Notes under the pieces: generated by a model
The model's input: the letters and a program-made list of their open reading frames with translations, nothing else
Told to the model about the DNA's origin: nothing
The model's database searches: none
Shown: in pieces, positions 13,582 through 38,339 of the stretch
How the letters are laid out: each line of letters starts with the position of its first letter
How positions within the stretch are numbered: the stretch's first letter is position 1
NCBI GenBank assembly: GCA_024235015.1
Contig: JACKNG010000001.1
Location: 77,934 to 141,933, forward strand
Direction of reading: 5' to 3'
Length of the DNA stretch: 64,000 bases
Origin: Gammaproteobacteria bacterium
GTDB taxonomy: Bacteria; Pseudomonadota; Gammaproteobacteria; Ga0077536
Translations under genes and position numbers: made by a program

Positions 13582-13663
13582 CAGACCTCTTCTCGTGTGA
13601 AATGGTGTGCCGCAGGCAGCACGGCGATTCTAAGGGAATTGGCCGGCGACCGTCGCCGCCGGC

Positions 13664-14851
13664 TCATACCGCGCCGGCTGCGCGCAGGGCAGCGACTGCC
13701 GCGGCGTCGTAGCCGAGTTCGGCGAGGATGGCGTCGGTGTGCTCTCCCACCGTGGGCGCGCGCCGATGCGGCGGCGCATGGCCGGACATGGCGACCGGGA
13801 AGCGTGCCACGGGGGGCGCGGTGCCCGCGATGTCGGGATATTCGAGCGGGCGCAGGAAGCCCATCGCGGCGGCCTGCGGGTGGGTGACGGCCTGGTCGAG
13901 ATCGAGCACCGGTCCGGCCGGCACGCCGGCCGCGGCGAGGGCGTCGAGAACTTCCTCGGTGGTGCGGCTGCGGCACCAGTCGGCGACGTGGCCGCAGATC
14001 TCGTCGCGGTGGTCGCCGCGCAGGCCGTCGCTGGCGAACGCCGGGCGGTCGGCCCAGTCGACGTCCCCGATGAGACCGGCGAGGCGCCTGAACAGGCCGT
14101 TGCCGACCACGTGGGTCAGCACGTGGCCGTCGCGTGTCTCGAAGATGTCGGTCGGCGCGCTGGTCTGGCCGCGGTTGCCGCTCGGTACGCGGTTGACCGC
14201 GAGCACGGCCTGCTCGATGAGCGCGGCGTTGAAGAAGGTCAGCGAGGTGCCGAGCAGCGAGGCCTGCACGTGCTGGCCCCGGCCCGTGTCGCGCTTCTGG
14301 TAGAGCGCGGCGAGCGTAGCGAAGGCGCCGAGCGCGGCGGTGCCGAAATCGGCGAACGGGGTCGCGCTCTTGGCCGGCTGGCCGGGCTGCCCGGACATGA
14401 AGGCCGAGCCGGACATGGCCTGGCCGATGCCGTCGAAACCGCCGCGGTCACGCCACGGGCCTTCGTGGCCGAAACCGGTCTGGGTGGTGAGGATGATGTC
14501 GGGCTTGATGGCGGTGAGCGTGGCGTAGTCGAGGCCGGCGCGGACCAGCGCCTTGGGCGGCATGTTGGCGATGACGACGTCGGCCCGCTCGATCAGGCGG
14601 CGCTTGATGTCCGCCGCCTCGGCATGCTTGACGTCGAGCGTCATGCCGCGCTTGTTGCAGCCGGTTTCGAGGTAGACCGCGCTCGCCGTGGGACTGACCG
14701 TGCCGACGAAGCGGTCCTCGCTGCCACCCGGCTTCTCGATGCGGATGACGTCGGCGCCGAGGTAGGCGAGCAGCGCGGCGCAGTAGGGGCCGGCGATGTA
14801 GCGCGAGAAATCGAGCACGCGTACGCCGGCCAGGATGGCGTTGTCGGACAT
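13664..14851 (-). CDS. CoA transferase family III (CaiB/BaiF-type)
   Basis: Real start MSDNAILAGVRVLDFSRYIAGPYCAALLAYLGADVIRIEKPGG at the ATG at 14851 with a GGAGG RBS; 395 aa. The 20-aa extension in the track is not supported. Confidence 0.85.
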   Translation of the reverse strand: MSDNAILAGVRVLDFSRYIAGPYCAALLAYLGADVIRIEKPGGSEDRFVGTVSPTASAVYLETGCNKRGMTLDVKHAEAADIKRRLIERADVVIANMPPKALVRAGLDYATLTAIKPDIILTTQTGFGHEGPWRDRGGFDGIGQAMSGSAFMSGQPGQPAKSATPFADFGTAALGAFATLAALYQKRDTGRGQHVQASLLGTSLTFFNAALIEQAVLAVNRVPSGNRGQTSAPTDIFETRDGHVLTHVVGNGLFRRLAGLIGDVDWADRPAFASDGLRGDHRDEICGHVADWCRSRTTEEVLDALAAAGVPAGPVLDLDQAVTHPQAAAMGFLRPLEYPDIAGTAPPVARFPVAMSGHAPPHRRAPTVGEHTDAILAELGYDAAAVAALRAAGAV

Positions 14852-15034
14852 GGTTCCCCTCCTCCCCGTTGACAGGCTCGCCGCGCTGTCCGTCAGCGGC
14901 GGCCGCGGCATTGTCGCAATTCCGCCCGTTCTTGACGATGCAGTGGCGGAGCCTGGCCCGGGAGCACCGGCGGGCGTGTGCTAGGGTCGGGGTCCGACTC
15001 ACCGCGCCGAGCGCATCGGCGAGGAACAGCAGTG

Positions 15035-15569: not shown

Positions 15570-16115
15570 CTACAGCCCCGCGGGGCGCTTCTGCAGCTTG
15601 CGTTGCAGGGTGCGTCGATGCAGGCCGAGCTTGCGCGCGGCGTCGGAGACGTTGCCCTTGCAGGCGATCAGGGTCTTCTGGATGTGTTCCCACTCGAGGT
15701 GTTGCAACGAGGTCGGCTCGCTCGGTACGGCCGCCTGCGGGTCGGGCCCGGGCGCGCCGAAGGCGGCGATGATCTCGTCGGCGTCGGCCGGCTTGGTGAG
15801 GTACTGCACGGCGCCGAGCTTGATGGCATGGACGGCGGTGGCGATGCTCGCGAAGCCGGTCAGCACGACGATGCGCAGCGCCGGGTCGATGGCGCGCAGG
15901 GGCTCGATCAGTTGCAGGCCCGAATCCTGTTCCAGGCGCAGGTCGAGGACGACGTAGGCCGGCGGCGTGGCGCGGGCCGCGACGAGGGCGGACGTCCCAT
16001 CGGCGGCGGTCGTAACCGCGTAGCCGCGCCGCGTCAGCGCCGCGGCCAGCACCTCGCGGAAGGCCTGGTCGTCGTCGATGATCAGGCAGCGCGGCGCGCT
16101 GGCGGTGGCCGTCAT
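15570..16115 (-). CDS. regA: Fis-type response regulator of the RegA/PrrA/ActR/RoxR family
   Basis: 181 aa from MTATASAPRCLIIDDDQAFREVL..., with a receiver domain (D at LVLDLRL) plus a C-terminal Fis-type HTH (GNVSDAARKLGLHRRTLQRKLQK). The ATG at 16115 overlaps the kinase stop (ATGA). The long upstream extension in the track is a wrong-frame continuation. Confidence 0.85.
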   Translation of the reverse strand: MTATASAPRCLIIDDDQAFREVLAAALTRRGYAVTTAADGTSALVAARATPPAYVVLDLRLEQDSGLQLIEPLRAIDPALRIVVLTGFASIATAVHAIKLGAVQYLTKPADADEIIAAFGAPGPDPQAAVPSEPTSLQHLEWEHIQKTLIACKGNVSDAARKLGLHRRTLQRKLQKRPAGL

Positions 16116-17365
16116 GTCGGCGACAGGGGCGCGATGGGGATGGCGATGCGGGCCAGGGTGCCGTGCGGCGGCCGCGCTTCGAGGGCCAGGCTGCCGCCGA
16201 GGCGCTCGACGATGGTGCGCGCCAGCAGCAGGCCGATGCCGAGACCGTCCTGCTTGGTGCTGACGGCCTCGCGGCCGAGGCGCGCGCCGAGCGCGGCGTC
16301 GATCCCCGGGCCGTCGTCGCCGACCGTGAGTGACAGCTCGGCGGCCGACCAGCGGCTCTCGATGTCGACCCGCGAGGCGGCCGCCTGGGCGGCATTGTCG
16401 AGCACGTTGACGATGGCCTGGGTGAGCACGCGGTCGACGACGATGCCGGGTGGTGGCGTGCTGCCGCGGTGCACATAGGCGACTTCGACTTCGGGGTGGC
16501 GGGCGCGCCAGTCGCGCACCACGCCGGCGACGAAGTCGTCGACGGCGACCGCCTCCCCGGCACTCGCCGGGCCGGCGCCGGCGACGTCGGCCATGCGCGC
16601 GAGAATTGCCTTGCAGCGCGCAATCTGCGCACGCAGGGTGGCGGCCTGAGCGCGCAGTTCGGCGCTGTCGGCGCCGTGCTCGATCTCGCCGGCGAGCACG
16701 GCCATGGTCGACAACGGCGTACCGAGTTCGTGCGCCGTGCCGGCGGCGAGGGTGCCGAGGGCGAGGAATCGCTCGCTCGCCAGCGCCTCTTCGCGCAGGG
16801 TCGCGAGTTCGTGATCGCGGCGGCGCAGGTGGCCGGCGAGCGCGGCGACGAACAGCGCCACCGAGACCGCGCTGAGCATGAAGCCGTACCACATGCCCCA
16901 CACGTGCAGGCTGAACGAGCCGGCCTGGTGATGGCCCTCGAGCGGCGGCGCCGGCACCAGCATGAGGCCCGTGTAGCAGGCCACGGCGATCACCGCCACC
17001 GCGGCCGTGGCGGGCCGTGGCAGGGCCGCCGCGGCGAACACGATCGGCAGCAGGAACAGCGAGATGAAGGGGTTGAAGGCACCGCCGGTGAAATAGACCA
17101 GGGCCGAGAGCGCGGCGAGATCCGCCAACAGCTGGGCGAGGTAGCCGCGCGCCGGGTGCACGCCCATGCCGGGTGTGCCCACCCACCAGGAGAACGCGGT
17201 GAACAGCGCCAGCACGACCAGCACGAGGTTGATCGCGGGCCATGGCAGGTGCGCGGCGAAGACCCCGTCCATGACCAGCAGGGCGAGGTATTGGCCGCCG
17301 ATCACGACCAGGCGGATCAGCAGCAGGTAGCGCAGGATGTGGTCGATGGGGGTGCGGTTGGGCAT
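16112..17365 (-). CDS. regB: Redox-sensing sensor histidine kinase of the RegB/PrrB/ActS/RoxS family
   Basis: 417 aa from MPNRTPIDHILRY... (alternative ATG at 17404). Multi-TM N-terminus with the quinone-binding heptad GGAFNPF (GGXXNPF), H-box TAHELGTPLS, conserved redox-box cysteine in QIARCKAILARM, and an HATPase domain. Confidence 0.85.
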   Translation of the reverse strand: MPNRTPIDHILRYLLLIRLVVIGGQYLALLVMDGVFAAHLPWPAINLVLVVLALFTAFSWWVGTPGMGVHPARGYLAQLLADLAALSALVYFTGGAFNPFISLFLLPIVFAAAALPRPATAAVAVIAVACYTGLMLVPAPPLEGHHQAGSFSLHVWGMWYGFMLSAVSVALFVAALAGHLRRRDHELATLREEALASERFLALGTLAAGTAHELGTPLSTMAVLAGEIEHGADSAELRAQAATLRAQIARCKAILARMADVAGAGPASAGEAVAVDDFVAGVVRDWRARHPEVEVAYVHRGSTPPPGIVVDRVLTQAIVNVLDNAAQAAASRVDIESRWSAAELSLTVGDDGPGIDAALGARLGREAVSTKQDGLGIGLLLARTIVERLGGSLALEARPPHGTLARIAIPIAPLSPT

Positions 17366-17449
17366 CGCGGTGGACGCTCGGCGCAGGGCCGCGGGCACGG
17401 CCATCCTAACCGCAGCACCGCCGCGGTGGAATCGGTGCCGCGACCGGGT

Positions 17450-17464: not shown

Positions 17465-17596
17465 AGCTGGCGACCCTTGGGCAGAACGCCCGTCGGCCCC
17501 ATGTCTGAGGGCAATCAAGGCACGTCGTCGCCCGGCGTGCTCCGATAGCAACGACTGCCAGCCCCATGCCGGTGGTACGCACAGAGGAGATTGCCG

Positions 17597-18055
17597 ATGA
17601 CCAATAAGCTGCTCGTCATTCCCGCCGCACTCGCAGCCGGCCTGGCCGTGACCCCGGCACTGGCGGTTCACGAACCGCGCGTCGAGCCCGAGCATCCCGC
17701 GCCCGAGTACGCCGTCGAGTGTCCCGAGGGCACTGCGGACGCCGGCGCCTGCAAGGTCGACCAGCTCACCTACGACGGCTGGAAGACCTTCAAGATCGAA
17801 TGCCAGCAATGTCACGGCGGCGGCGCCATGGGCAGCACTTTCGCGCCCAACCTGATGGTGCGGTTCAACGAGGACGGGGTCGATTACGGCCGCTTCCTCT
17901 ACGTCATGAACCACGGTTACACCGGGCACACGGGGGCCATGCCGTCGATGGAGAAGAATCCGCGCGTGCAGAAGAACAAGGACGCGCTCTACGCCTATCT
18001 CAAGGCGCGCGCGGATGGTCGCCTGCCGAACGGGCGGCCGCCGAAGCCGGAGTGA
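17597..18055 (+). CDS. Periplasmic mono-haem c-type cytochrome
   Basis: Signal peptide MTNKLLVIPAALAAGLAVTPALA plus a CQQCHG haem-binding motif (CXXCH). The ATG at 17597 is preceded by a GAGGAG RBS at 7-nt spacing; the track starts at an upstream TTG at 17591. Confidence 0.75.
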   Translation: MTNKLLVIPAALAAGLAVTPALAVHEPRVEPEHPAPEYAVECPEGTADAGACKVDQLTYDGWKTFKIECQQCHGGGAMGSTFAPNLMVRFNEDGVDYGRFLYVMNHGYTGHTGAMPSMEKNPRVQKNKDALYAYLKARADGRLPNGRPPKPE

Positions 18056-18238: not shown

Positions 18239-19111
18239 TCAGACGTCGAACTTGTACGTGTCCCCGTCTCGCACCAGGCGACCCGCCGTGGGACCGGCGA
18301 AGTGCGTGCCGATGATCAAGGTCGGCGTGTCGGCATACTCCTTGAATACGCGGCGGCGGGTAGCCACGGCGGCGTCGTTGTCGACGTCGAAGGGGCTGAC
18401 CAGGCCGGCATCCCAGAACTGGATCGGGTGATGGATGAAGTCGCCCGTGATCATGGCCGTCTCGCCCTTCGACTCGATCAGCACCGAGCAATGCCCCGGG
18501 GTGTGCCCGGGCGTCGGGATCAGGCGCACGTTGGTGCAGACGTCGCCCGGGCCGTCGATGGGCTTGGCGAGTCCCGCGTCGAGGATGGGCTGGATGGAGT
18601 CCGCCCACACCCGGTTCTGGATGTCGATGAAGTCCTCGCCGCTGTCCTTTGGCAGGTTGCCCCAGAACTCCTGGTCGCCCTTGCCCCACAGGTAGGACGC
18701 GTTGGGGAAGGTCGGCACCCACTTGCCATCCTTCTTGTAGGTGTTCCAGCCGACGTGGTCGAGGTGCAGGTGGGTGCACAGGACGTAGTCGATCTCCTCG
18801 GTCTTGAAGCCGGCCGCCTTGAAATCGTCCATGAAGCTCGTCTGCAGCATGTGCATGACTTCGAACGGGTTGCGGTCGCGCTCGTTACCGATGCAGGTGT
18901 CGACGACGAGCTTGTTGTTCGGCGTTTCGATGACCAGCATGTGGATGCTCAGGCTCAGCGCGCCTTCCGGGGTGACGAAGTGCGGGAACAGCCACGGCAC
19001 CTGCTTGACCACGTCGGGCGTGGCGGCCGGGATGACGTCGGAGAATTCCGGGTACTCGATTTCGCGGATGCGCGTGATGGTGCAATCGCCGATTTTCCAC
19101 TTCAGATTCAT
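18239..19111 (-). CDS. MBL-fold metallo-hydrolase (AHL-lactonase-like)
   Basis: 290 aa with the HLHLDHVG zinc-binding motif and downstream H and D ligands (TPGHTPGH, GDFIHH). Confidence 0.8.
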   Translation of the reverse strand: MNLKWKIGDCTITRIREIEYPEFSDVIPAATPDVVKQVPWLFPHFVTPEGALSLSIHMLVIETPNNKLVVDTCIGNERDRNPFEVMHMLQTSFMDDFKAAGFKTEEIDYVLCTHLHLDHVGWNTYKKDGKWVPTFPNASYLWGKGDQEFWGNLPKDSGEDFIDIQNRVWADSIQPILDAGLAKPIDGPGDVCTNVRLIPTPGHTPGHCSVLIESKGETAMITGDFIHHPIQFWDAGLVSPFDVDNDAAVATRRRVFKEYADTPTLIIGTHFAGPTAGRLVRDGDTYKFDV

Positions 19112-19141: not shown

Positions 19142-20182
19142 TTACAGGATGTTTTCCGCGACGACGCGCAACTCGTCTGCGCTGTTCGCCGAGATGACCA
19201 TGGTGCCGACCTCCCCGCGCGCGCCGGCGGCCTTCCAGCGCGCGAGCTGCTCCTTGATGTGCGCTTCCGGGCCGACCAGGCAGACTTCGTCGACGTAGGC
19301 ATCGGGTACCGCGGCGGCGGCTTCGTCCTTCTTGCCGGCGAGGTAGAGATCCTGGATCTCGACCGCCGCCGCCTCGTAGCCGAGGCGCTTGGTGTAGTCA
19401 TTGTAGAAATTCTTCTCGCGCGCACCCATGCCGCCGATGTAGAGCGCGAGGTGATGCTTCATCTGCTCGCGGCACTTGGCGATGTCCGGCCCCATGGCCA
19501 TGCGCACGAACGGCGCGAAATCGAAATCGGCCCGCGTACGGCCGTCGTTGGCCTTGGCGATGCCGGCATCGATGGCCGGCGCGAAGACGTCGGCGCGATC
19601 GGGGTTGGCCCAGATCATGAAGCAGCCATTGGCGATCTCGGCAGCGAGTTCGACGCCCTTCTGGGTCGCGACGCCGGTGTAGATCGGGATGTCCGGGTTG
19701 CCGTGCAGGATGCTCTTCAGCGGCTTGCCCAGGCCCATGCTGCCCGGGCCCTTGTACGGGATCTGGTAGTGCTCGCCCTCGTGGGTGAGCGGCGCTTCAC
19801 GCTTGAAGATCTTGCGCATGATCGAGATGTACTCGCGGGTACGCAGCAGCGGTTTGCCATAGGGCTGGCCGTACCAGCCTTCGATGACCTGCGGACCGGA
19901 CGGCCCGATGCCGAGCAGGAAGCGCCCGCCGGAGAGCTGGTCGAGGGTCATCGCGGTCATCGCGGTCATCGACGGGGTGCGCGCGGCCATCTGCATGATG
20001 GCGGTGCCGGCGCGGATCTTCGTCGTCTGCGCCAGCACCCAGGCCACCGGGGTGACGGCGTCCGAGCCCCAGGCCTCGGCGCTCCACGCCGAGTCGTAGC
20101 CGAGCGCTTCCGCTGCCTTGATGAGATCCATCGGGATTTTCACGTGTGCGCCCGAGTAGCCGAAGACCATGCCGAGTTTCAT
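19142..20182 (-). CDS. LLM-class (luciferase-like) oxidoreductase of the F420-dependent type
   Basis: 346 aa from [19 protein letters not shown]...; the 32-aa extension in the track is unsupported. It is a paralogue (~55% identity by eye) of the 47378..48418 gene. Confidence 0.8.
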
Positions 20183-20439: not shown

Positions 20440-21696
20440 ATGCGCCACCACCAGCACGACCACGATTCCACCGACGCGCCCGTCGATGCGCAGACACCGC
20501 CGGATCACCGGCCCGGCAGCGTGTCGCGGCGCGACGTCCTGCGCGGGCTCGCCGCGCTCGGTCTGAGCGGGCCCGCGGCCCTCGCCGCCCTGCGCAGCGG
20601 CGACGCCGCCGCCGACCACGCCCTGCTCGACCGCGGCGAATTCGAAGCGGGTTTCGCACGCCTGCTCGACGCGGCGCCGCTCGCCGGTCTCGCCCGCCAC
20701 CAGACCTTCGAGATCCTGCCGGCCGACCTGCCGTGGAAGCCGCTCGAGGTCGAGCTGCGCGCCGGCCAGGCCGCGACCGTGCTGCTCAGCGGACGCTGGT
20801 GGCTGGTGGAGGATCTCGACGTGTGGGTCGAACCCGGGCTCGCCTTCTTCGCCCGTGTCGGCGAGCGCAATCCGGTCTACAACCCGCAGAAGAACACCGG
20901 CACCTTCACCGCCGCCCACGGCGGCCGCGTCGCGGTCGCGCGTGCCATCGGCGAGTGGGCCGACAGCCGGGCCGAGACGGTCGCCACGCCGGCGGAAGTC
21001 TACACGGCGGCGAAAGGTGCGATTCGCGGCGTGCTGCTGGTGTGGGACGGCGACCCGCTGAGCGGTCTCGAAGCACTGCGCCAGCGTGGCGACGTCGGCG
21101 GGCTGGTCGCTGCCGAGATCACCCGTTTGCGCACCGAACCACCCCCGCCGGCCGGCTGGCAGCCGATGTACGTGACCGGCAACGCGGGCATCTACTCGAC
21201 CTGCGCGCCGGGGCAGATCTGCTGCCACAGTCACAAGAATGCCTGCCTGCTGACCCGCGACGTCGACCTGCCGCTGGCCGCGGGCGCGCGGCTCGACTGG
21301 CGCTGGGCGGTCGAGGAATTACCCTCGGCGCGTGCCGAAGACGCGCTGCTCGCCCACGACTATCTCTCCATCGCGGTCGAGTTCGACGATGGCCAGGATC
21401 TCACTTACATGTGGAGCGTCGACCTGCCGGTCGGCCACGTCTTCCGCTGCCCGATCCCGAGCTGGCAGGCCATCGAGACGCACATGGTGGTGCGCTCGGG
21501 GCGGCAGGAACTCGGTCGCTGGCTGGCCGAATCGCGCGACGTTCACGCCGACTACCACGCCCACATCGGCGGTCCGGCGACGCGCATCGTCAAGGTCTGG
21601 CTGATCGCGCTGTCGTTCTTCCAGCGCGGTACCGGGCGGGCGCGCTATGCCGACATCGTGGTCAGCAGCGATGGTGCCGAGCGGCACCTGAGCTGA
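20440..21696 (+). CDS. Tat-secreted uncharacterized conserved protein (paralogue A of a two-member in-window family)
   Basis: Start MRHHQHDHDSTDAPVDAQTPPDHRPGSVSRRDVLRGLAALGLSG carries a twin-arginine motif and follows a GGGAGA RBS. About 350 aa are collinear with the 37272..38339 protein (for example PPPPAGWQPMYVTGNAGIYSTCAPGQICCHSH, LDWRWAVEELPSARAED, LAHDYLSIAVEFDDGQDLTYMWS). No confidently assignable domain; it is possibly DUF3047-like. Confidence 0.6.
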   Translation: MRHHQHDHDSTDAPVDAQTPPDHRPGSVSRRDVLRGLAALGLSGPAALAALRSGDAAADHALLDRGEFEAGFARLLDAAPLAGLARHQTFEILPADLPWKPLEVELRAGQAATVLLSGRWWLVEDLDVWVEPGLAFFARVGERNPVYNPQKNTGTFTAAHGGRVAVARAIGEWADSRAETVATPAEVYTAAKGAIRGVLLVWDGDPLSGLEALRQRGDVGGLVAAEITRLRTEPPPPAGWQPMYVTGNAGIYSTCAPGQICCHSHKNACLLTRDVDLPLAAGARLDWRWAVEELPSARAEDALLAHDYLSIAVEFDDGQDLTYMWSVDLPVGHVFRCPIPSWQAIETHMVVRSGRQELGRWLAESRDVHADYHAHIGGPATRIVKVWLIALSFFQRGTGRARYADIVVSSDGAERHLS

Positions 21697-21752: not shown

Positions 21753-22775
21753 TCAGCGGACCTCGTCGAGGATCTCGCCGAAGGCCTCCACGACTTCGAG
21801 ACATTCGGTCCGCGAGGGATAGGGCTGGCCGGGGTTGACCGGGTTACGCGTGCGGATGCACAGCCAGTCGGGATTGACCTTCTCCTTCATCTCGCCGAGG
21901 CGGTCGATCCATTTCTGCCGGTTGCCGAGGCACAGGAACATGTTCTCGATCTGGTCGAGCATGTCGGTCGCCTCGGCGTCGGGTGACAGGCCCTTCTCGG
22001 CGTAGAAGCTCCACTCGCGGACCCAGCGGTGACCGTGCTTTTGGCGCACCCCGGGGTCGTCGGACAACCAGCCCTCGAAGCCGATGGTGATCTGGAAATC
22101 GTCCTTGTTCCGCGCCGCGGCGCGCTCGCGCATGGACTGCGCGGCCGGGGCCAGTTCGTCCAGCGCCGGCGGGAACCACAGGCACCAGCCCTCGTAGTTC
22201 AGCGCGCGCTCCATGGCCTTGGGCGCGAATGCGCCGATCCAGATCGGCGGACGCGGTTTCTGGTAGGGATGCGGCAGCAGGCGCACCCCTTCGTAATGGT
22301 AGAACTCGCCGGCGTAGTTGAACTCGTCCTCGGTCCAGGCGCCGACGATGCAGTCCATGACTTCCTCGAAGCGCTTGCCGCGCTTGTCGAAAGGCACACC
22401 GAAGCAACGGAAATAGTCCTCGTGGTAGCCGACGCCGGCGCCGAAGACCAGCCGCCCGCGCGACAGGTTGTCGACCGCGGCGAGGCTCTCGGCGAGATGG
22501 ATGGGGTGGTGAAAGGTCGGCTGGATGACGGTCGAGGCGAGCTGCACCCGCTCGGTCACCGCCGCCAGCACCGCCAGCAGCGACGTCGCGTTCGGCCACC
22601 AGGTCTCCGGGCGCTGATGCCGCTCGGGGATCCAGAGGCCATCGAAACCGACCTTCTCCGCCAGTCTGGCCTCGGCGATACAGTGATCCATGGCGTCGGC
22701 GACCGCGTCGGGGGCGGGCGTTTCCACCTGGTCGTAGACGCCGAAATGGGTGTCGGGCATGAAGGCGATCTTCAT
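21753..22775 (-). CDS. LLM-class flavin-dependent oxidoreductase
   Basis: 340 aa from MKIAFMPDTHFGVYDQVE... with the luciferase-like TIM-barrel signature; RBS before the ATG at 22775. The 189-aa extension in the track is junk. Confidence 0.8.
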   Translation of the reverse strand: MKIAFMPDTHFGVYDQVETPAPDAVADAMDHCIAEARLAEKVGFDGLWIPERHQRPETWWPNATSLLAVLAAVTERVQLASTVIQPTFHHPIHLAESLAAVDNLSRGRLVFGAGVGYHEDYFRCFGVPFDKRGKRFEEVMDCIVGAWTEDEFNYAGEFYHYEGVRLLPHPYQKPRPPIWIGAFAPKAMERALNYEGWCLWFPPALDELAPAAQSMRERAAARNKDDFQITIGFEGWLSDDPGVRQKHGHRWVREWSFYAEKGLSPDAEATDMLDQIENMFLCLGNRQKWIDRLGEMKEKVNPDWLCIRTRNPVNPGQPYPSRTECLEVVEAFGEILDEVR

Positions 22776-22902: not shown

Positions 22903-23421
22903 TCAGTCCGAGGCGGCCCGCGCCGCGCCGTGACGGGCGGCGAGGATGGAGTGCAGGCGCGCGCTGCCGGGGGCGAACTGGTAGCGCTGCGGGAAGGCCC
23001 GCCAGGCGCGTGCCCAGGCCGCGGCGCGGCTTCCTTCGCCGACCGGCAGGTCGACGCTGTCGAAGCCGCAGCCGACGAGTTGCTGCGCCTGGTCGGGCAT
23101 GAGTGGCCCGCGCGCGCGAAGTTCGCCGGCGAAACCGGCGCACCGCAGTGCATGACCGACGGAGAAGCCGCGGCCATCGCCGACGTCGGCGAAGCCGACT
23201 TCGACCAGCCCGAGTCGCGGTAACCAGTCCAGCAGGCCGTCGACCAGCGGCGGGGTCTCGAGCGCGACGCCGAGCGGCCGCGGCCAGGCCGTCGTAGCCA
23301 TCGCGGCAGGCAGGGCCGTCGCCGGCACGATGACGTGGCCAAGATCTTCTACAGCGTCGGGCCAGTCGACGAGCCGGCGCCAGGAGTCGGCGCCGAGGCG
23401 GCCCTCAACGATCAAGGGCAC
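22903..23421 (-). CDS. DUF934 protein (sulfite-reductase-associated)
   Basis: A GTG start at 23421 with a GGGAGG RBS gives MPLIVEGRLGADSWRRL... (172 aa). It overlaps the cysI stop by 17 nt; the gene order cysI-DUF934 is conserved in pseudomonads. Confidence 0.65.
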   Translation of the reverse strand: MPLIVEGRLGADSWRRLVDWPDAVEDLGHVIVPATALPAAMATTAWPRPLGVALETPPLVDGLLDWLPRLGLVEVGFADVGDGRGFSVGHALRCAGFAGELRARGPLMPDQAQQLVGCGFDSVDLPVGEGSRAAAWARAWRAFPQRYQFAPGSARLHSILAARHGAARAASD

Positions 23422-25066
23422 GGCAGGCCTCCCGGAACGCGTCGACGCCGAGCCGCCGCACGGTATCGAGGAAGTGCTCGCCACGACGGCGCTCACGCCG
23501 GTAGTGGGCGACAAGTTCGTCGATCGCCTCGAGCGCGGTCTCGGCCTCCACGGCACGGCCGAGACGCTCACCGATCGCCGCGTCGTCCCCGGCAGCGCCG
23601 CCGAGGGTGAGCTGGTAGTACTCGCGGCCGCCCTTCTCCACGCCGAGGATGCCGATGTTGGCGGCGTGGTGGTGGGCGCAGGCATTGACGCAGCCCGAGA
23701 TGCGGATCGCGAGCGGACCGATGTCGCCGGCTTCCCGCTCGTCGTCGAAACGCGCGGCGAGGCGTCGCGCGAGCGGGATCGAGCGGGCGTTGGCGAGGTT
23801 GCAGTAGTCGAGCCCGGGGCAGGCGACGACGTCGCTCGCGCAGTCGAGGTTCGCCCGGGCCAGCCCGCGCGCGACCAGCGCCTGCCACAGCGCGGCCAGG
23901 TCGCAGCGTCTCACGTGCGGCAACACCACGTTCTGCGTGTGCGTGACGCGCAGCTCGCCGGCCGAGTAGCGCCCGACGAGATCGGCGAGCAGGCGCATGT
24001 CGTCAGCGCTCGCGTCGCCCGGTGCGGCGCCCGGCTGCTTGAGGGTCACGACGACGATGGCGTGGGTGTCGAGGCGGTGGCGCAGGACGTTACGGCGCAG
24101 CCAGCGCCGGTGCGCCGCGTCGTCGGCGATCTGAATCCCGACGTCGCCGGTGTTCGCACTTGCGTGGAACACCGCGGGCGGCAGCGCGAAAGCCGCCGCG
24201 ATGCGCTCGAGCTCGGCGCCGACGAGGGCGAACCGATCGCGCGGGGTGGCGGCGAACTCGCGTTCGACCTCGGCACGGAACGCTTCGAGGCCGAGCGCCT
24301 GGACGAGGATCTTGATGCGCGCCTTGTACTTGTTGTCGCGCCGCCCGTGCAGGTTGTACACGCGCAGGATCGCTTCGAGGTAGGGCAGCAACTGCTCGAG
24401 CTCGAGGCCGGGGTGGAGGGGCTCGGCGATGACCGGCGTACGGCCCTGCCCGCCGCCGACACTGACGGCATAACGCGGCTCACCGTCGGCGCCGGCGACG
24501 ATACGCACGGCGAGATCGTGGAACTGCAGCGCGGCGCGGTCGGCAGCGGCGCCGCTCAGCGCGAGCTTGAACTTGCGCGGCAGGAAAGCGAATTCCGGGT
24601 GCAGGGTCGACCACTGGCGCAGCAGCTCGGCGAGCGGGCGCGGGTCGCGGTACTCGTCCGCGGCGACCCCAGCGTAAGCGTCGCAGGTGATGTTGCGGAT
24701 GCAATTGCCGGAGGTCTGGATGGCGTGCATGTCGAGCGCCGCGAGGTCGGCGAGCAGGTCCGGCACGCGCTCGAGTTCCAGCCAGTTGAACTGGACGTTC
24801 TGGCGCGTGGTGAAGTGACCGTAGCCGCGGTCGTAGCGCTCGGCGATGGTGGCGAGACCCGCCAGCTGGCGTGCGCTCAGGGTGCCGTAGGGGATGGCGA
24901 CCCGCAGCATGTAGGCATGGCGCTGGCGATAGAGCCCGTTCTGCAGGCGCAGCGGTGCGAACTCCTCCTCGCTCAGGTAGCCCGCGAGGTAGCGCGCGAC
25001 CTGGTCGCGGAACTGGCCGACGCGTTCGTTGATCAGGGCACGGTCGAAATCGTCGTAGCGGTACAT
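23405..25066 (-). CDS. cysI: Sulfite reductase (NADPH/ferredoxin) hemoprotein beta-component
   Basis: 553 aa with a MYRYDDFDRALINERV... N-terminus and nitrite/sulfite reductase 4Fe-4S/sirohaem motifs (CPGLDYC, CVNACAHH). Confidence 0.85.
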   Translation of the reverse strand: MYRYDDFDRALINERVGQFRDQVARYLAGYLSEEEFAPLRLQNGLYRQRHAYMLRVAIPYGTLSARQLAGLATIAERYDRGYGHFTTRQNVQFNWLELERVPDLLADLAALDMHAIQTSGNCIRNITCDAYAGVAADEYRDPRPLAELLRQWSTLHPEFAFLPRKFKLALSGAAADRAALQFHDLAVRIVAGADGEPRYAVSVGGGQGRTPVIAEPLHPGLELEQLLPYLEAILRVYNLHGRRDNKYKARIKILVQALGLEAFRAEVEREFAATPRDRFALVGAELERIAAAFALPPAVFHASANTGDVGIQIADDAAHRRWLRRNVLRHRLDTHAIVVVTLKQPGAAPGDASADDMRLLADLVGRYSAGELRVTHTQNVVLPHVRRCDLAALWQALVARGLARANLDCASDVVACPGLDYCNLANARSIPLARRLAARFDDEREAGDIGPLAIRISGCVNACAHHHAANIGILGVEKGGREYYQLTLGGAAGDDAAIGERLGRAVEAETALEAIDELVAHYRRERRRGEHFLDTVRRLGVDAFREACRALDR

Positions 25067-25067
25067 G

Positions 25068-26474
25068 TCACACCGCCACGGCGTCGGGCAGGCTGGCCGT
25101 GGTCACGGCCGCCGCGTCACGCGGATGCAGGCCGAGCAGGATCACGGCGGGCCCGCTCGGCGCATGCCGGCGCAGGGTGCTCGTCAGCGTGGCCAGGGTG
25201 CAGGCCTGCACGCGCTCGCCGGCTTGCCCGACGGCCTCGACGATGGTCACCGGGGTGTTCGCATGGGCGCCGTGCAGGAGCAGCCGGCCCTGTACGAAGT
25301 GCGCTGCGCGCACCCCCATGTAGATGGCCGCCACCGCGCCCGCACGGGCCAGCCGGCGCCAGTCCTGCTCGGCATAGCCGCGGGTGTCGTGGCCGCTGAC
25401 GATGGCGAGCGCGCTGTTGCGCCCGCGCCGGGTGAGCGAGGCGCCGATGCGTGCAGCCGCGGCGGCAGCCGCGGTGATGCCGGGGACGACTTCGTAGTCC
25501 ACGCCTGCCGCCACCAGGGCGTCGAGCTCCTCGTCGGCGCGGCCGAAGACCATCGGGTCGCCTGATTTCAGCCTGACCACCTGCAGGCCGGCCCGGGCCT
25601 CACGGATCAGGCGTTCGTTGATGGACCGTTGCGCCGGGCTCGGCAGCCCGGCGCGCTTGCCGACGTCGACGATGCGTGCGTCGCGCCGCGCGAGGTCGAG
25701 GATGCGGCGGTCGACGAGGCCGTCGATGAGTACCACGTCGGCCTGTTCGAGCCGGGCGCGGGCGCGTTCGGTGAGCAGCTCGGGATCGCCCGGCCCGGCG
25801 CCGACCAGGCTCACCCTGCCCCGCGCGGCGAACATTACCGCGGCGCCGTCGCGACGCAGCGCGTCGTGCAGCAGGCGCCGGGCCTGTTCCGCACCCTGAT
25901 CCCGGAGCAGGCGGGCGCCGTCGTGGGCGAACAGCCGTGCCCAGAAACGCCGCCGTGCGGCCGGCGCGAGCGTGCTGCGCACCACCGGCCGCAGCGCGCC
26001 GGCGAGACGGGCCAGCGCAGCGGTCTCGGGCCCGAGCAGTTTCTCGATGCGCGACTTGAGGTGCCGGACCAGGGTCGGCGCTGCACCCTCGCTGCCGATG
26101 GCGACCACGACCGGGGCACGATCGACGATGGCCGGCGAGACGAAATCGGACGCCGCCGCGTCGTCGACGGTGTTGCACAGGACGCCGAGCCGTGTGCAGC
26201 GCGCGCGCAGTCCTCGCTGTGCGGGGAGCGCGGCACCGGCCAGGTAGACCAGGCGCGAACGCTGCAGCGCGTCGTCGTCGGGCAGGCCTGCGTGCAGGGC
26301 GATGCGCCCGTCGCACGCCAGCGCCACGAGCTCGCGGTCGGCCTGCGCGGTGTAGACCACGAGCTGCGCCGGAGTCTTGAGCAGGTGATGCAGCTTGGCG
26401 TGCAGCGGCACGCCCGCGCCGACCAGGCAGACTCGTGCATCGCGCAGGTCGAGGTAGATGGGGAGGTAGTTCAT
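25068..26474 (-). CDS. cysG: Siroheme synthase (precorrin-2 dehydrogenase/ferrochelatase + uroporphyrinogen-III C-methyltransferase)
   Basis: 468 aa from MNYLPIYLDLRDARVCLVGAGV (Rossmann), with a C-terminal SAM methyltransferase domain (VSLVGAGPGDPELLT...). The start at 26474 has a GGGAGG RBS; the upstream extension in the track is not supported. Confidence 0.85.
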   Translation of the reverse strand: MNYLPIYLDLRDARVCLVGAGVPLHAKLHHLLKTPAQLVVYTAQADRELVALACDGRIALHAGLPDDDALQRSRLVYLAGAALPAQRGLRARCTRLGVLCNTVDDAAASDFVSPAIVDRAPVVVAIGSEGAAPTLVRHLKSRIEKLLGPETAALARLAGALRPVVRSTLAPAARRRFWARLFAHDGARLLRDQGAEQARRLLHDALRRDGAAVMFAARGRVSLVGAGPGDPELLTERARARLEQADVVLIDGLVDRRILDLARRDARIVDVGKRAGLPSPAQRSINERLIREARAGLQVVRLKSGDPMVFGRADEELDALVAAGVDYEVVPGITAAAAAAARIGASLTRRGRNSALAIVSGHDTRGYAEQDWRRLARAGAVAAIYMGVRAAHFVQGRLLLHGAHANTPVTIVEAVGQAGERVQACTLATLTSTLRRHAPSGPAVILLGLHPRDAAAVTTASLPDAVAV

Positions 26475-26494
26475 GCGGTTGGCTCGTGTCGAGG

Positions 26495-27142
26495 TCACTG
26501 TTGCTGTTGCAGCCCGCACTCGAGTGTGCTGCCGGGCTTGGTCGGGTCGACGTAATCGTGGTTGTCCGGCAGCGCGTGGCGGGCCAGGTAGCCTGCGACG
26601 TCGGCGTCCGTCCACTCGAACAGCGGCGCCAGGCGGGTCACCCCGCCATAACCGCGCGAGCGGATGCCCAGAGTGTCGCGGTAGGCGGTCTGGCCGCGGC
26701 GGATGCCGGTCAGCCACAGGTCGGGGTGCAGTTCGTCGAAGGCGCGACGGAAGGGTTCGAGCTTGAAGTCCTCGACGAAACGTTCGAACGTCGCCTCACC
26801 GGGGCGCGGGGGGGGGCCGTGCAGCGCCACCCAGCGCGCCGGGCTGACGCGTGGCATGCAGGTTTTCAGCGCAAGGCCCAGGCGGGCTTCGAGCGCCGCG
26901 GCGTAGCGGTAGGTGGTCGTGGTGTTGTAACCGGTGTCGACCCAGATCACCGGGATTCCCCGGCGCACGCGCTGCACGAGGTGCAACAACGCCACCGCGC
27001 CGGGACGGAAGTTGGTGGTCAGAACGGGCCGCCGGGCGTGTTCGAGGGCGGCGCGGACGAGGGCCAGCGCAGTGCGCTCGCGGGTGTCGCCGGTGATGGC
27101 CGGCGGCCTGGCCGGAGATGGATGATCGAGGGTGCCCTGCAT
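26495..27142 (-). CDS. cysH: Phosphoadenosine phosphosulfate (PAPS) reductase
   Basis: 215 aa, PAPS reductase family with a C-terminal ECGLQ motif (the ECGLH catalytic-Cys region) and no Fe-S Cys cluster, so the PAPS rather than the APS type. Confidence 0.8.
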   Translation of the reverse strand: MQGTLDHPSPARPPAITGDTRERTALALVRAALEHARRPVLTTNFRPGAVALLHLVQRVRRGIPVIWVDTGYNTTTTYRYAAALEARLGLALKTCMPRVSPARWVALHGPPPRPGEATFERFVEDFKLEPFRRAFDELHPDLWLTGIRRGQTAYRDTLGIRSRGYGGVTRLAPLFEWTDADVAGYLARHALPDNHDYVDPTKPGSTLECGLQQQQ

Positions 27143-29758: not shown

Positions 29759-29761
29759 GCG

Positions 29762-30334
29762 ATGAGCGAGGAATTCAGCGTCAGCCGCGATCTCATCCGC
29801 CAGCTCGTCGAGGGCACCATCGACGACGACAACACCGAGCGGCTGCTCAAGCTGCCGCGCAAGGACAAGGATCGCTTCCTCAACTACATCGCCGTGCTGC
29901 AGGAACGTGTGCCGTGGGACGATCGCATCCTGCTGCGCCTGGGCGACAAGCTCTACGTGGTGTCGAAAGGCGCCGGGCGGCGCGAGACCCAGTGCGAGTG
30001 CGGTCACAGCTTCGGCGACTACCGTGAGAACTGGAAGCTGAAGTGCCGCATCCGCGTGCGTGACACCTTGGAGCGTATGGCCGAGGTCTACGATCCCGCC
30101 CCGGCCGTGCCCGAGGCGGGCTGGCAGGAAATCCGCGAATTCTTCTGCCCCGGCTGCGCCACCCAGCACGCGGTCGAAGTGGTCGCGCCGGGTTACCCGG
30201 TGGTATTCGAACTGCTGCCGGATCTCGATCGCTTCTACCGCGATTACCTCGGCCAACCGCTCGCGGACGAAGCCGGGGACTGGTACGAGGACCGCTCGGC
30301 GCAGGTGACGGCGCACTGGAAACAAGCCGGCTGA
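29762..30334 (+). CDS. Acetone carboxylase gamma-subunit-like protein (AcxC-like Zn-ribbon subunit)
   Basis: 190 aa with IAVLQERVPWDD, CECGHSF..NWKL..RVRD, and IREFFCPGC, matching AcxC blocks; starts 4 nt after the alpha-like stop. Confidence 0.8.
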   Translation: MSEEFSVSRDLIRQLVEGTIDDDNTERLLKLPRKDKDRFLNYIAVLQERVPWDDRILLRLGDKLYVVSKGAGRRETQCECGHSFGDYRENWKLKCRIRVRDTLERMAEVYDPAPAVPEAGWQEIREFFCPGCATQHAVEVVAPGYPVVFELLPDLDRFYRDYLGQPLADEAGDWYEDRSAQVTAHWKQAG

Positions 30335-30384
30335 GTACGCGGCGCGGTCGGGACGCCGGCCTAACAAACCGGGACGGAGCTAAG

Positions 30385-32728: not shown

Positions 32729-32738
32729 GGAAAACAAC

Positions 32739-35442: not shown

Positions 35443-36369
35443 TCAGTTCTCGATGACGGGCTTGACCTCCTCGATGATGCGCCGGGTCTGCTCGACGGTG
35501 TCCTGCTCGCCGGCGGCGATCGGGAAGAGCACGAACTTCGAGGCGCCGGCGTCGATGTAGCGGCGCAGGCGATCGATCACGTCCGCGCTGCTGCCGATGC
35601 AGAACAGCGGGTCGAGGTCGAGCGTTTCGCCGATGCCGGTGCGCTTGACGAAGGGCGAGTTGACCACGGCGTCGTCGTCGCGGCTGCCGATGCGGTAGGC
35701 CAGCGACGTGCCGTAGTGGTCGTCGTCGATGTGGCGGCCGAGCCGCGCGGCCTCGGCCTTGATCCCGGCGATCACCGTGCGCACGTCGTCGGGCGAGGCG
35801 ATGCCGCCGATCCAGCCGGTGCCGAGACGCGCGGTGCGCTTGATTGCGGCCTGGCTGTTTCCGCCGATCCACAGCGGCAAGGGCTGCTGCACGGGGCGTG
35901 GCGCAATGGTCGCATCGCGGTACTGGAAGTACTTGCCCTCGTAGGTCACCTTCTCCTCGCGCCACAGACGGTCGATGAGTTCGAACATCTCGTTGGCGAT
36001 CGAACCGCGATGGTCCGAACTGCGCCCGGTCGCGCCCCACTCCGCCGCCTTCGGGTAACCGACACCGAACATCGGCAGCAGGCGCCCGTTGGACAGGTAG
36101 TCGATGGTCGCGCACTGCTTGGCCAGCACCAGCGGGTCGCGCAACGGCGCGACGATCGCGTTCATGCCGAACTTGATGCGTTCGGTGCAACCGGCCAGGG
36201 CGGCCAGCGCCGACAGCGATTCGAGGTAGTTGTCAGTCGAGATCAGGCGGTCGGACTGCCACACCGAGTCGACCCCGGCACGTTCGAGCATCTCCACCCA
36301 GCGGAAATAGCCGCGGCCATCCTCGAAGGGGTAATTGACGAGGCCGAAGCCGATCCGGATTTTCAGCAT
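35443..36369 (-). CDS. LLM-class (F420/FMN-dependent) oxidoreductase
   Basis: 308 aa from MLKIRIGFGLVNYPFEDG... The 148-aa Arg/Ala-rich extension in the track is not supported. Confidence 0.75.
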   Translation of the reverse strand: MLKIRIGFGLVNYPFEDGRGYFRWVEMLERAGVDSVWQSDRLISTDNYLESLSALAALAGCTERIKFGMNAIVAPLRDPLVLAKQCATIDYLSNGRLLPMFGVGYPKAAEWGATGRSSDHRGSIANEMFELIDRLWREEKVTYEGKYFQYRDATIAPRPVQQPLPLWIGGNSQAAIKRTARLGTGWIGGIASPDDVRTVIAGIKAEAARLGRHIDDDHYGTSLAYRIGSRDDDAVVNSPFVKRTGIGETLDLDPLFCIGSSADVIDRLRRYIDAGASKFVLFPIAAGEQDTVEQTRRIIEEVKPVIEN

Positions 36370-36386: not shown

Positions 36387-37151
36387 TCACATTTCCATCG
36401 GTAGCTTGAAATGCGCGCGCAGGACGCGCTCGCGGTGTTCCATCAACAACGGCGTCAGCGCTGCTTTCACCTCGGGCGCGAGGAGTTCGAACATGGCGCG
36501 GAAACCCTCGGCGACCGGCACGTCCTCCGGCGGCGGCAGGAGGTAGATGGTCGAGAACGCGGCCCAGTAGAAATCGACCGCGGTGAGGGTGTCGCCGACG
36601 AAGTAGGCGCAGCCGCGCGCCCGCTGCGCCTCGAGTTCGGCATGCAGCAATTGCAGCGTTTCGACCTGGCGGCGATCGGCGAGCGCGACATCGCTTTCGT
36701 TGTAGTTGTACTTGCGCGCCATGCTGAGCACCGGCGCCGGCGGCTGGCCCGATTCCATCGCCGGGCGGAACAGTGACAGACGCCGGTTCCAGCCGAGACC
36801 GAGCGGGCCACACATCTCGTAGGCGAGGCCGAGTGCCCGCGCGCGATCGGCGCGTTTCTCCGGCAGCAGGCGCTTGTTGGGGGCGAGACGCTCGAGGAGG
36901 AAGAGGATGTCGTCCCAGCGATTGAGCGGCGGCTCGTCGTTCCAGGCCACCACCGGGCCGCTGTTGATGCCGGCCCAGGCCACCAGTGCCACGTTGTCAC
37001 CGCCCGGCATCTGCGCGCCGCAGGCGAAGTCGAGGCCCTTGTATTCCATCATCGCCTTGGCCGCCTGGCCCCACGGGCTCGGCGTGCCGGCGACGAGGAC
37101 GAGGCGCAGGCCGTCGCGCTTGATCAGGTCTTCGATGGCGATGAATTCCAT
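36387..37151 (-). CDS. Glutathione S-transferase family protein
   Basis: 254 aa from MEFIAIEDLIKRDGLRLVLVAGTPSPWG... with GST N- and C-terminal domains; GGAGGG RBS before the ATG at 37151. The 737-aa track ORF is mostly wrong-frame read-through. Confidence 0.8.
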   Translation of the reverse strand: MEFIAIEDLIKRDGLRLVLVAGTPSPWGQAAKAMMEYKGLDFACGAQMPGGDNVALVAWAGINSGPVVAWNDEPPLNRWDDILFLLERLAPNKRLLPEKRADRARALGLAYEMCGPLGLGWNRRLSLFRPAMESGQPPAPVLSMARKYNYNESDVALADRRQVETLQLLHAELEAQRARGCAYFVGDTLTAVDFYWAAFSTIYLLPPPEDVPVAEGFRAMFELLAPEVKAALTPLLMEHRERVLRAHFKLPMEM

Positions 37152-37271: not shown

Positions 37272-38339
37272 ATGAACGATACGATCGAACGACTGTGGGC
37301 GGCACTCGTCGAACACCGCGAGGGCCGCGCCTGGCGCAGCGCGCGCTGTACGCTGGCCGGCAATCGGCGCCCGTGGCAGGGCACCGGCCTGCGGCTCGCG
37401 CAGGGCCAGGCCTACTCGATCCTCGCCGACGGCCGTGTGCACTGGTCTGAGCGCCATCCCCATCTGCACGGCGGACCGGGCTTTCATCTCTACGCGCGGG
37501 TCAGCCCCGGCGGACGCCTGGTCAACGTCACCCGCACGAGCGGCAGTTTCGTCGCCGATGTCGCGGGCGAACTCGAACTCGGCATCTATCTCGGCATGTG
37601 GCGCGATGACTACGGCGGCCTCGATACCCCCGACAGTGCCTACGCCCGCCTGCGCGGCGATATCGACGTCGTCGTGCTGGCCTGGCCGGGCGCGGCCGTG
37701 CGCGGACTGGCCACCCTCGCCGCGGAACTCGACGATCCCCTGCTCCAGGTCGAGGCTGCGCGCGCCGCCGCGCCGGTGGCGCCGCCGCGCGGCTGGGATT
37801 ACCTCGTCGAAACCGGCACCAGCGACATCTGGCAAGCCTGTGACGAGCAGGCGCCGCGCATCTGCCTGCACGCCGTCGACGACCAGGGCATCATCCGCAA
37901 GCCGCTCGACTTCGAACTGCAGCCCGGCACGCAACTCCAGTGGCGCTGGCGACTGGACGAGCATCCGAGCCGTGCGCCCGAGGACAGCAGGCTCGCCCAC
38001 GACTACGTCTCGATCGCGCTCGAGTTCGACGACGGCCGCGATCTCACCTGGCTGTGGAGCAGCTGCCTGCCGGTCGAGACCTGGTTCGCCTGCCCGGTCA
38101 AGGCCTGGAGCGCGCGCGAGACCCACTACGTCGTACGCAGCGGTCTGCAACGCCGTGGCACCTGGGTGAGCGAGCAGCGCGACGTCCACGCCGACGTCGC
38201 GCGTGCCCTGGGTACGGTGCCCTGCCGCATCGTGGCCTGCTGGCTGATCGCCGTGGCGAGCTTCCAGCACGGCACCGCGCGGGCGGCCTTCGAGGACATC
38301 GTCCTGGCTGCTGGCACCACTCGCCAGGTCGTGCTGTAA
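37272..38339 (+). CDS. Cytoplasmic uncharacterized conserved protein (paralogue B of the 20440..21696 protein)
   Basis: 355 aa from MNDTIERLWAALVEHREG with no signal peptide, collinear with paralogue A (RPWQGTGLRLAQGQAYSILADGRV, PPRGWDYLVETGTSDIWQACDEQAPRICLH, LQWRWRLDEHPSRAPEDS, LAHDYVSIALEFDDGRDLTWLWS, RDVHAD). Confidence 0.6.
   Translation: MNDTIERLWAALVEHREGRAWRSARCTLAGNRRPWQGTGLRLAQGQAYSILADGRVHWSERHPHLHGGPGFHLYARVSPGGRLVNVTRTSGSFVADVAGELELGIYLGMWRDDYGGLDTPDSAYARLRGDIDVVVLAWPGAAVRGLATLAAELDDPLLQVEAARAAAPVAPPRGWDYLVETGTSDIWQACDEQAPRICLHAVDDQGIIRKPLDFELQPGTQLQWRWRLDEHPSRAPEDSRLAHDYVSIALEFDDGRDLTWLWSSCLPVETWFACPVKAWSARETHYVVRSGLQRRGTWVSEQRDVHADVARALGTVPCRIVACWLIAVASFQHGTARAAFEDIVLAAGTTRQVVL

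Follow-up and report, generated by a model that had tools for sequence, protein, structure and literature searches.

The question raised by this locus is what kind of protein a single bacterium keeps in two versions, one predicted to be exported and the other to stay in the cytoplasm. The window, i.e., the whole 64,000-nucleotide stretch analysed here, originates from a Gammaproteobacteria bacterium (GenBank assembly GCA_024235015.1, contig JACKNG010000001.1, positions 77,934 to 141,933), and two of its open reading frames (ORFs), located 16.8 kb apart, encode such a pair. Both products were found to contain the Pfam domain DUF3047 (PF11249). According to the ORF listing, with the stop codon counted, the two genes are as follows:

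20440..21696, + strand: copy A, DUF3047 protein of 418 amino acids (aa), member of the exported clade, for which the twin-arginine translocation (Tat) route is predicted
37272..38339, + strand: copy B, DUF3047 protein of 355 aa, member of a cytoplasmic clade

Each gene starts with an ATG codon (at 20440 and 37272, respectively), and both start positions match those of the nearest homologues (P0122 with 417 aa for copy A; P0001 and P0002 with 355 aa for copy B). The sequence GGGAGA lies 8 nt ahead of the copy A start, and a weaker purine-rich stretch precedes that of copy B. Promoter and terminator scans around the two genes returned nothing useful, and a third copy is absent from the window.

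A preliminary description, made from the sequence alone, had presented the two proteins as full-length paralogues of an uncharacterised family, quoting blocks of identical residues. These blocks are present in both proteins, and a BLASTP comparison bore out the claim, giving 125 identities over 317 positions (39%) at an E value of 1e-65; this is far above chance, and the similarity is not confined to low-complexity segments. The alignment is collinear, placing residues 98-410 of copy A on residues 34-347 of copy B with seven gap positions overall. The closest relative of copy A shares 84% identity (P0122, from the metagenome-assembled genome (MAG) GCA_050184115.1), followed by proteins with 43-79% identity, which include those of cultured Alpha-, Beta- and Gammaproteobacteria of the genera Hyphomicrobium, Xanthobacter, Bradyrhizobium, Azospirillum, Hydrogenophaga, Thauera, Parazoarcus, Amphritea and Parasalinivibrio. 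The relatives of copy B (99% identity for P0001, 77% for P0002, then 45-69%) derive nearly all from gammaproteobacterial MAGs. Since each copy is closer to proteins of other bacteria than to its partner, copies A and B are old paralogues that diverged anciently; a recent duplication or an assembly artefact is ruled out by the 39% identity and the separate sets of orthologues. In the MAG GCA_050184115.1, both copies are found on one contig and in the same order as in the window.

The assignment to DUF3047, which the preliminary description had put forward as a guess, was confirmed by Pfam with 99.1 bits for copy A (residues 259-407) and 95 bits for copy B (residues 192-344), against a gathering threshold of 27 bits, and close homologues are publicly annotated as "DUF3047 domain-containing protein". 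The Pfam model describes the C-terminal ~150 residues only, and the N-terminal ~170 residues, comprising a beta-sandwich and a linker, are unmodelled: in this part, neither copy gave a Pfam or NCBIfam match. NCBIfam holds no model for either copy, and sequence searches of the PDB with single sequences and with profiles revealed nothing significant (PsaD, E 1.3; YJL217W, E 0.06). Full-text literature searches for DUF3047, PF11249 and IPR021409 retrieved a marine-metagenome ecological correlation study only and no functional work; the two-domain architecture, the clades and the export status are not described there. DUF3047 is still uncharacterised and the two proteins are, therefore, not members of a well-studied family. 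Both belong to an already catalogued family, and no surprising mechanism is demonstrated. What is new is the division into four clades of conserved export status, the fold of both domains, three links to gene context, and Tat signal n-regions rich in Cys and His.

For the delineation of clades, sequences were collected by scanning species-representative genomes and metagenomes, and were then assigned by BLAST against clade representatives. The family resolves into four clades:

Clade A: exported, contains copy A; Alpha-, Beta- and Gammaproteobacteria
Clade B: cytoplasmic, contains copy B; mostly gammaproteobacterial MAGs
Clade C: cytoplasmic, beginning with an amphipathic helix at the N-terminus; Steroidobacteraceae and related Gammaproteobacteria
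Clade D: cytoplasmic; soil metagenomes

When the N-terminal domain was compared by phmmer with 1.84 billion representative sequences, only 116 clusters were obtained; by length and by the position of the match, these correspond to two-domain proteins or to apparent fragments of such proteins. This implies that the two domains travel together and that the family is small.

Inspection of the copy A N-terminus supported the preliminary description in that a twin-arginine signal preceded by a His-rich region is present in copy A and missing from copy B:

20440..20613, + strand: residues 1-58 of copy A, predicted to form a twin-arginine signal peptide

The signal carries SRRDVLRGLAALGLSGPAALAALRSGDAAA after the His-rich n-region (residues 1-29). 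In order, the N-terminus consists of MRHHQHDHDSTDAPVDAQTPPDHRPGSV, SRRDVLR with R30 and R31 encoded at 20527-20532, the h-region GLAALGLSGPAALAAL, and RSGDAAA, followed by DH; cleavage would probably occur after A58 (AAA at residues 56-58). These elements conform with the Tat pattern of an S/T-R-R-x-F-L-K-type motif, a mildly hydrophobic h-region and an AxA site. In the AlphaFold2 (AF2) model of copy A, the predicted local distance difference test score (pLDDT) falls below 50 for residues 1-27 and 41-58, and the body is confidently modelled from about residue 60 on.

The signal is not restricted to the window. Among 37 aligned clade A sequences, R30 and R31 are invariant (37/37), and a stretch of mild hydrophobicity and a site of the AxA type come after them. 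A search for the RR motif retrieved 91/120 clade A homologues vs 4/120 clade B homologues, the misses in clade A being mostly due to apparent N-terminal truncation or to a variant residue before RR (e.g., PRR). No signal peptide was found in clades B, C and D. Because RR is conserved in clade A and the signal is absent from the other three clades, the predicted split between exported and cytoplasmic proteins, as noted for this genome by the preliminary description, is real and is a conserved property of the clades rather than a peculiarity of one genome.

The composition of the n-region was analysed for the clade A homologues P0121-P0240. Before RR, Cys accounts for 8.8% of the residues vs 0.9% in the mature part (about ten-fold) and His for 8.6% vs 2.3% (about four-fold). 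A Cys occupies position 2 or 3 in 64/94 clade A sequences (e.g., MCTLPHHAGC, MCLSD). The n-region of the window copy A (20440-20526) is a His-rich variant, MRHHQHDHD.

The AF2 model of copy B was obtained with a mean pLDDT of 95.7 and a predicted TM-score of 0.91, and revealed that a short helix leads into a beta-sandwich (residues 22-137), after which two helices (142-166) and a larger beta-sandwich (187-353) follow. The order of elements was the same in the copy A model (pLDDT 86.1). On the DNA, the domains are placed as follows:

20689..21045, + strand: N-terminal beta-sandwich of copy A, about residues 84-202, defined by the model strands and by collinearity with the copy B N-domain; no Pfam match
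21214..21660, + strand: DUF3047 jelly-roll of copy A, residues 259-407, defined by Pfam and model
37335..37682, + strand: N-terminal beta-sandwich of copy B, residues 22-137, with a PA-IL/LecA-like fold
37845..38303, + strand: DUF3047 jelly-roll of copy B, residues 192-344, holding the invariant polar residues; defined by Pfam, AF2 model and alignment

Judged from the models, both domains are beta-sandwiches of the type seen in lectins, carbohydrate-binding modules (CBMs) and jelly-roll proteins, and the earlier view of an unknown fold did not hold. The best structural matches were LecA, PllA and the N-domain of EclA, the modules CBM16, CBM30, CBM11 and CBM61, and a hyaluronan-binding module; the neighbours comprised lectins, binding modules and glycan-active enzymes, and no metalloenzymes were among them. 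For neither domain could membership in a characterised family be demonstrated.

The N-domain of copy B has the small jelly-roll beta-sandwich fold of the PA-IL/LecA proteins (LecA of Pseudomonas aeruginosa, PllA and the EclA N-domain), whereas no LecA-type match was among the best 60 structural matches of copy A. In Pfam, PA-IL (PF07828) was not matched by either copy at E ≤ 1. Alignment of the N-domain with LecA/PllA by hhalign gave a probability of 52% over 31 columns and of 11% in global mode; on account of these marginal values, membership in the LecA family was ruled out and the resemblance in fold alone is kept. A LecA-type lectin standing on its own was not demonstrated among the 116 N-domain clusters. 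Comparison of the Ca2+ and galactose ligands of LecA (Y36, H50, Q53, D100, T104, N107 and N108) in a global profile alignment of low confidence placed N107/N108 on the R/L of a conserved Y-x-R-L-x-G motif and D100 near D112; going by this alignment, the ligands would not be recognisably retained in DUF3047 proteins. EclA combines a LecA-type domain with a second sugar-binding domain (PMC11875179). In EclA, the partner of the LecA-type domain is the EclA C-domain, while the partner here is DUF3047.

For the C-terminal domain, the DUF3047 proteins share the GH16-type jelly-roll fold. Concanavalin-like jelly-roll proteins, namely glycoside hydrolases (GH16, GH12, GH11), polysaccharide lyase family PL7, CBMs, calreticulin and CFAP20, were matched with a target TM-score of about 0.45, which is a generic level. 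They share no sequence family with DUF3047, and their catalytic signatures are absent; the GH16 motif E-x-D-x-(x)-E is missing, the nearest conserved stretch being E251-F-D-(D/N)-G-x-D257.

Conservation was assessed in an alignment of 392 sequences from all four clades with a threshold of ≥95% (copy B numbering throughout), and 38 positions were retained. They lie in the N-domain (P34, W35, G45, G54, R76, G99, G115, Y124), in the linker (P172, W175, G182) and, for the greater part, in the DUF3047 domain (L216, W224, W226, P232, E237, H243, D244, Y245, S247, E251, G255, D257, T259, W262, S263, L266, C274, P275, W279, E283, H285, R289, R303, D308, W324, L325, F331). The invariant polar set comprises W224, W226, E237, H243, D244, Y245, S247, E251, D257, T259, S263, C274, P275, E283, H285 and R289. 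Several of these residues are spaced i, i+2 along four strands of the copy B model:

Residues 221-230: strand with invariant W224 and W226
Residues 245-252: strand with invariant Y245, S247 and E251
Residues 257-263: strand with invariant D257, T259 and S263
Residues 283-290: strand with invariant E283, H285 and R289

A D-(D/N)-G-x-D hairpin sits between two of the strands. The i, i+2 spacing on four strands suggests that the invariant residues line one face of the sheet. C274, H243 and H285 are the truly invariant Cys and His residues, and they differ from those that the preliminary description had highlighted. CCHSHK of copy A retains just its second Cys (≥90%) and the Lys, and does so within clade A only; CLH of copy B shows no conservation; and in RDVHAD, described as invariant, only the R (97%) and the last D (99%) are conserved across the 392 homologues.

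The genes next to DUF3047 relatives were identified by domain detection on six-frame ORFs and by a forced-target gene caller. The genome scan covered the upstream neighbour at 78 loci and the downstream neighbour at 80, 24 of the loci belonging to clade C; phmmer matches to response regulators or histidine kinases at two loci (L020 and L071) were left out of the regulator counts. Among the 78 loci, the gene directly upstream of a clade A member encodes a response regulator at 11 loci and a histidine kinase at 10 loci; downstream, a kinase was found at 2 loci. Within 1 kb, a kinase or regulator was detected by phmmer in 26/56 clade A species, with only 3 more further out in the 6-kb flanks, revealing a link to kinases or regulators across lineages. 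The arrangement is either kinase-regulator-DUF3047, DUF3047-kinase-regulator with a 4-bp gap, or divergent; the neighbouring systems are of both the OmpR and the NarL type, and the kinases have 125-240 aa of periplasmic loop between two transmembrane helices. Other clade A loci contain AraC-type regulators (6) or extracytoplasmic function (ECF) sigma factors (2). On a 472-kb metagenome contig (L007, 6001-8710), two exported-clade genes of 407 and 409 aa are arranged in tandem and directly follow a histidine kinase and an OmpR-type regulator. In Vibrionaceae, a ToxR-like nature of the upstream regulator, with DUF3047 in the place of ToxS, was considered and rejected, the winged helix-turn-helix domain of this regulator being C-terminal (residues 293-369 of 382); this is why the matches at L020 and L071 were not counted.

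The cytoplasmic clades have other neighbours. In clade B, an orthologue (≥300 bits) of the 308-aa luciferase-like monooxygenase (LLM)-type oxidoreductase encoded near copy B was found at most 1.6 kb upstream at 15/24 loci with sufficient flank, often with a gene for a glutathione S-transferase (GST)-like protein between it and DUF3047 (about 10 loci, also L001, L003 and L005); further LLM paralogues follow downstream. In clade D, an LLM of the TIGR03559 type, as found beside copy A, lies 4-40 bp upstream on the same strand at seven to eight loci. Clade C members are preceded by a wax-ester synthase/diacylglycerol acyltransferase (WS/DGAT) gene at 19 loci and followed by an AMP-binding acyl-CoA synthetase gene at 13 loci, often with 4-bp spacing, and a DUF2505 (SRPBCC-like) gene is found ahead of the acyltransferase. 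This operon, DUF2505-WS/DGAT-DUF3047-acyl-CoA synthetase, occurs in Steroidobacteraceae and related uncultured Gammaproteobacteria (L066-L090; e.g., L079, 4507-8889, and L090, 1369-6308), where a gene for ExoD or for an NAD-dependent epimerase/reductase is sometimes located upstream.

In the window itself, the genes flanking the two copies are the following:

18239..19111, - strand: metallo-beta-lactamase-fold hydrolase of 290 aa, beside the LLM gene upstream of copy A (Pfam Lactamase_B, E 4e-20)
19142..20182, - strand: LLM oxidoreductase of 346 aa, TIGR03559 "F420_Rv3520c" type, divergent from copy A (NCBIfam 395.8 bits vs a cut-off of 335; Pfam Bac_luciferase)
21753..22775, - strand: LLM oxidoreductase of 340 aa, convergent with copy A (Bac_luciferase, E 1.4e-55; TIGR03619 164.2 vs 166.9 bits, below the cut-off)
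35443..36369, - strand: LLM oxidoreductase of 308 aa, in the unit divergent from copy B (Bac_luciferase; TIGR03619 169 vs 166.9 bits)
36387..37151, - strand: GST-like protein of 254 aa, between the 308-aa LLM and copy B (GST_C 20.8 vs 20.7 bits, marginal)

For the metallo-beta-lactamase-fold protein, the best NCBIfam matches were lactonases, far under the cut-offs. The neighbourhood of LLM, GST and metallo-beta-lactamase genes, to which the preliminary description had drawn attention, is present as described, but the metallo-beta-lactamase gene and the LLM genes flanking copy A are specific to this lineage. An LLM gene directly beside an exported copy was found in the window lineage only (L011, L012), with an LLM gene about 1.8 kb off in L056. 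The link to LLM genes does hold for cytoplasmic relatives elsewhere (clades B and D), and the GST-like neighbour of copy B recurs at about 10 other loci of its relatives.

Further genes of the window were noted. Genes for a RegA/ActR-like response regulator (15573-16133, - strand) and a RegB/ActS-like kinase (16115-17398, - strand), named after their best NCBIfam matches, which are under the equivalog cut-offs, adjoin a gene for a small c-type cytochrome (17591-18055, + strand). This RegB/RegA-like pair (15.6-17.4 kb), the nearest of its kind to copy A, was considered as a counterpart of the sensor systems of the exported clade and was rejected, since it is about 2 kb off, on the other strand and separated by three genes; the group with the cytochrome is probably unrelated to copy A. 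A sulfate-assimilation block (22903-27142; DUF934, sulfite reductase hemoprotein, sirohaem synthase and 3'-phosphoadenosine-5'-phosphosulfate (PAPS) reductase) lies between the LLM gene downstream of copy A and hydantoinase genes. On a syntenic MAG contig (L006), the hydantoinase B gene comes directly after the LLM gene, and the block, therefore, looks like an insertion/deletion difference. The surroundings (10772-14911 and 27512-33599) resemble a catabolic island for hydrophobic compounds, with genes for a thiolase, a ChsH2/DUF35-type protein, a family III CoA-transferase, acetone-carboxylase/hydantoinase subunits and a fumarylacetoacetate hydrolase-family protein. A gene of the F420H2-dependent quinone reductase family (46829-47314; Pfam E 1e-40) adjoins a second gene for a TIGR03559 LLM (47378-48418); together, the quinone reductase and the two TIGR03559 LLMs, one of which is encoded beside copy A, hint at the use of coenzyme F420 in a gammaproteobacterium. 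The combination of thiolase, DUF35 and TIGR03559 LLM recalls the Rv3520c-Rv3523 region of Mycobacterium tuberculosis.

The explanation we favour for the pair is one conserved ligand-binding and possibly catalytic module that operates in the periplasm as well as in the cytoplasm. We regard the structural and evolutionary part of it as near certain and the explanation as a whole as evenly balanced between right and wrong; each specific functional reading, taken singly, is rather unlikely. The fixed architecture consists of a short N-terminal helix, a beta-sandwich resembling PA-IL/LecA (in copy B), two linker helices and the DUF3047 jelly-roll. Proteins of the copy A clade would be exported folded to the periplasm via Tat and those of the copy B clade would stay in the cytoplasm. 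Function would most probably reside on one face of the DUF3047 beta-sheet, where, in the model, the invariant Trp, Tyr, His, Asp, Glu and Arg residues and one Cys alternate along four strands by the D-(D/N)-G-x-D hairpin; on account of this arrangement, this face would resemble the binding cleft of jelly-roll glycan-active proteins. The module may bind, and possibly hydrolyse or transform, a small polar or amphiphilic ligand with a sugar or acyl moiety, and it may perform the same chemistry on both sides of the inner membrane. In the periplasm, it could be a ligand-binding accessory, or a tightly controlled target, of the neighbouring membrane sensor kinases. The cytoplasmic clades could work with LLM-type (F420/flavin) oxidoreductases and with lipid enzymes (acyl-CoA synthetases, WS/DGAT) in pathways for hydrophobic or lipid-like compounds.

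For the exported clade, we presume a likeness to CpxP/CpxA, ZraP/ZraS, TorT/TorS and HbpS with SenS/SenR. In these two-component systems, too, a small periplasmic protein is encoded beside or divergently from a kinase/regulator pair, and the kinase has a periplasmic loop; HbpS is Tat-exported, as is predicted for the exported DUF3047 clade. CpxP, ZraP, TorT and HbpS have no homology to DUF3047, however.

Several observations weigh against the use of one module on both sides of the membrane. The window copy A itself is not linked to a kinase/regulator pair and is flanked by genes of cytoplasmic LLMs instead of a sensor system, and about half of the exported-clade loci are without an adjacent regulator. 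The genomes are rich in LLM genes, so plain adjacency is weak evidence. The clustering of the invariant residues is read from strand periodicity in a model only. For copy A, the Tat hidden Markov models (HMMs) scored below their curated cut-offs (PF10518, 14.0 vs 22.7 bits; TIGR01409, 12.2 vs 16.7 bits), which is a weak negative, since such short models often overlook true signals. In the literature found, no experiment or paper addresses the family.

Three other explanations were weighed against the same evidence. According to the preliminary description, DUF3047 proteins would be metal- or cofactor-dependent enzymes, in which invariant His, Cys, Asp and Glu residues bind a metal or cofactor loaded in the cytoplasm, hence the Tat route. 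The invariance of H243, H285, C274, D244, E251, D257 and E283 in the 392 sequences, the conserved Tat export of clade A and the enrichment of Cys and His in its n-regions are in line with this idea, and the many invariant polar residues, among them one Cys and two His, speak rather for catalysis or metal binding. Yet, the searches of Pfam, NCBIfam and PDB sequences revealed no family with such binding, the motifs originally named are not conserved, the structural neighbours are not metalloenzymes, and the Cys/His-rich stretch would presumably be lost upon cleavage of the signal. Tat also exports proteins lacking a cofactor and, hence, Tat export alone is no proof of one. We consider an enzyme of this kind unlikely. 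The same low probability is assigned to a purely non-catalytic, lectin-like binding or scaffold protein that would bind a glycan or another partner, serving as a periplasmic co-sensor for kinases and as an adaptor in the cytoplasm. The structural neighbours lean to binding, the best matches being lectins and CBMs; EclA provides a precedent for a LecA-type domain joined to a second sugar-binding domain, and the adjacency of kinases fits the role of an accessory sensor. On the other hand, sixteen invariant charged or polar residues (with a Cys, two His and two Arg) at about 36-45% identity between clades exceed what is usual for binding modules, D100, N107 and N108 of LecA fall on non-equivalent residues in the low-confidence alignment, and cytoplasmic operons with 4-bp spacing to enzyme genes suggest a step in a pathway.

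Membership in the concanavalin-like clan as a divergent glycoside hydrolase or polysaccharide lyase, similar to GH16, GH12 or PL7, would agree with the jelly-roll fold of the C-terminal domain, but appears the least probable of the three: neither Pfam nor NCBIfam gave a match to a glycoside hydrolase or lyase family, E-x-D-x-x-E of GH16 is missing, with E-F-D-(D/N)-G-x-D as the nearest stretch, the structural scores are at the generic jelly-roll level, and the cytoplasmic clades are found among lipid and oxidoreductase genes, not among sugar-utilisation genes.

Returning to the idea of one conserved module that serves both compartments, a speculative extension would be that the DUF3047 two-domain protein is a ligand-processing module in matched periplasmic and cytoplasmic versions, acting as a hitherto overlooked third component of many OmpR- and NarL-type systems and as a dedicated partner of F420/flavin LLMs and of wax-ester/triacylglycerol operons, with the Cys/His-rich n-region adding a step of export control. 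If the context links are functional, an unstudied domain would gain three roles, i.e., as a partner of sensor kinases, as a partner of LLMs and as a component of wax-ester/lipid operons. The natural pair of an exported and a non-exported protein of one fold in one genome would also be a convenient system for asking for what purpose the Tat route is required.

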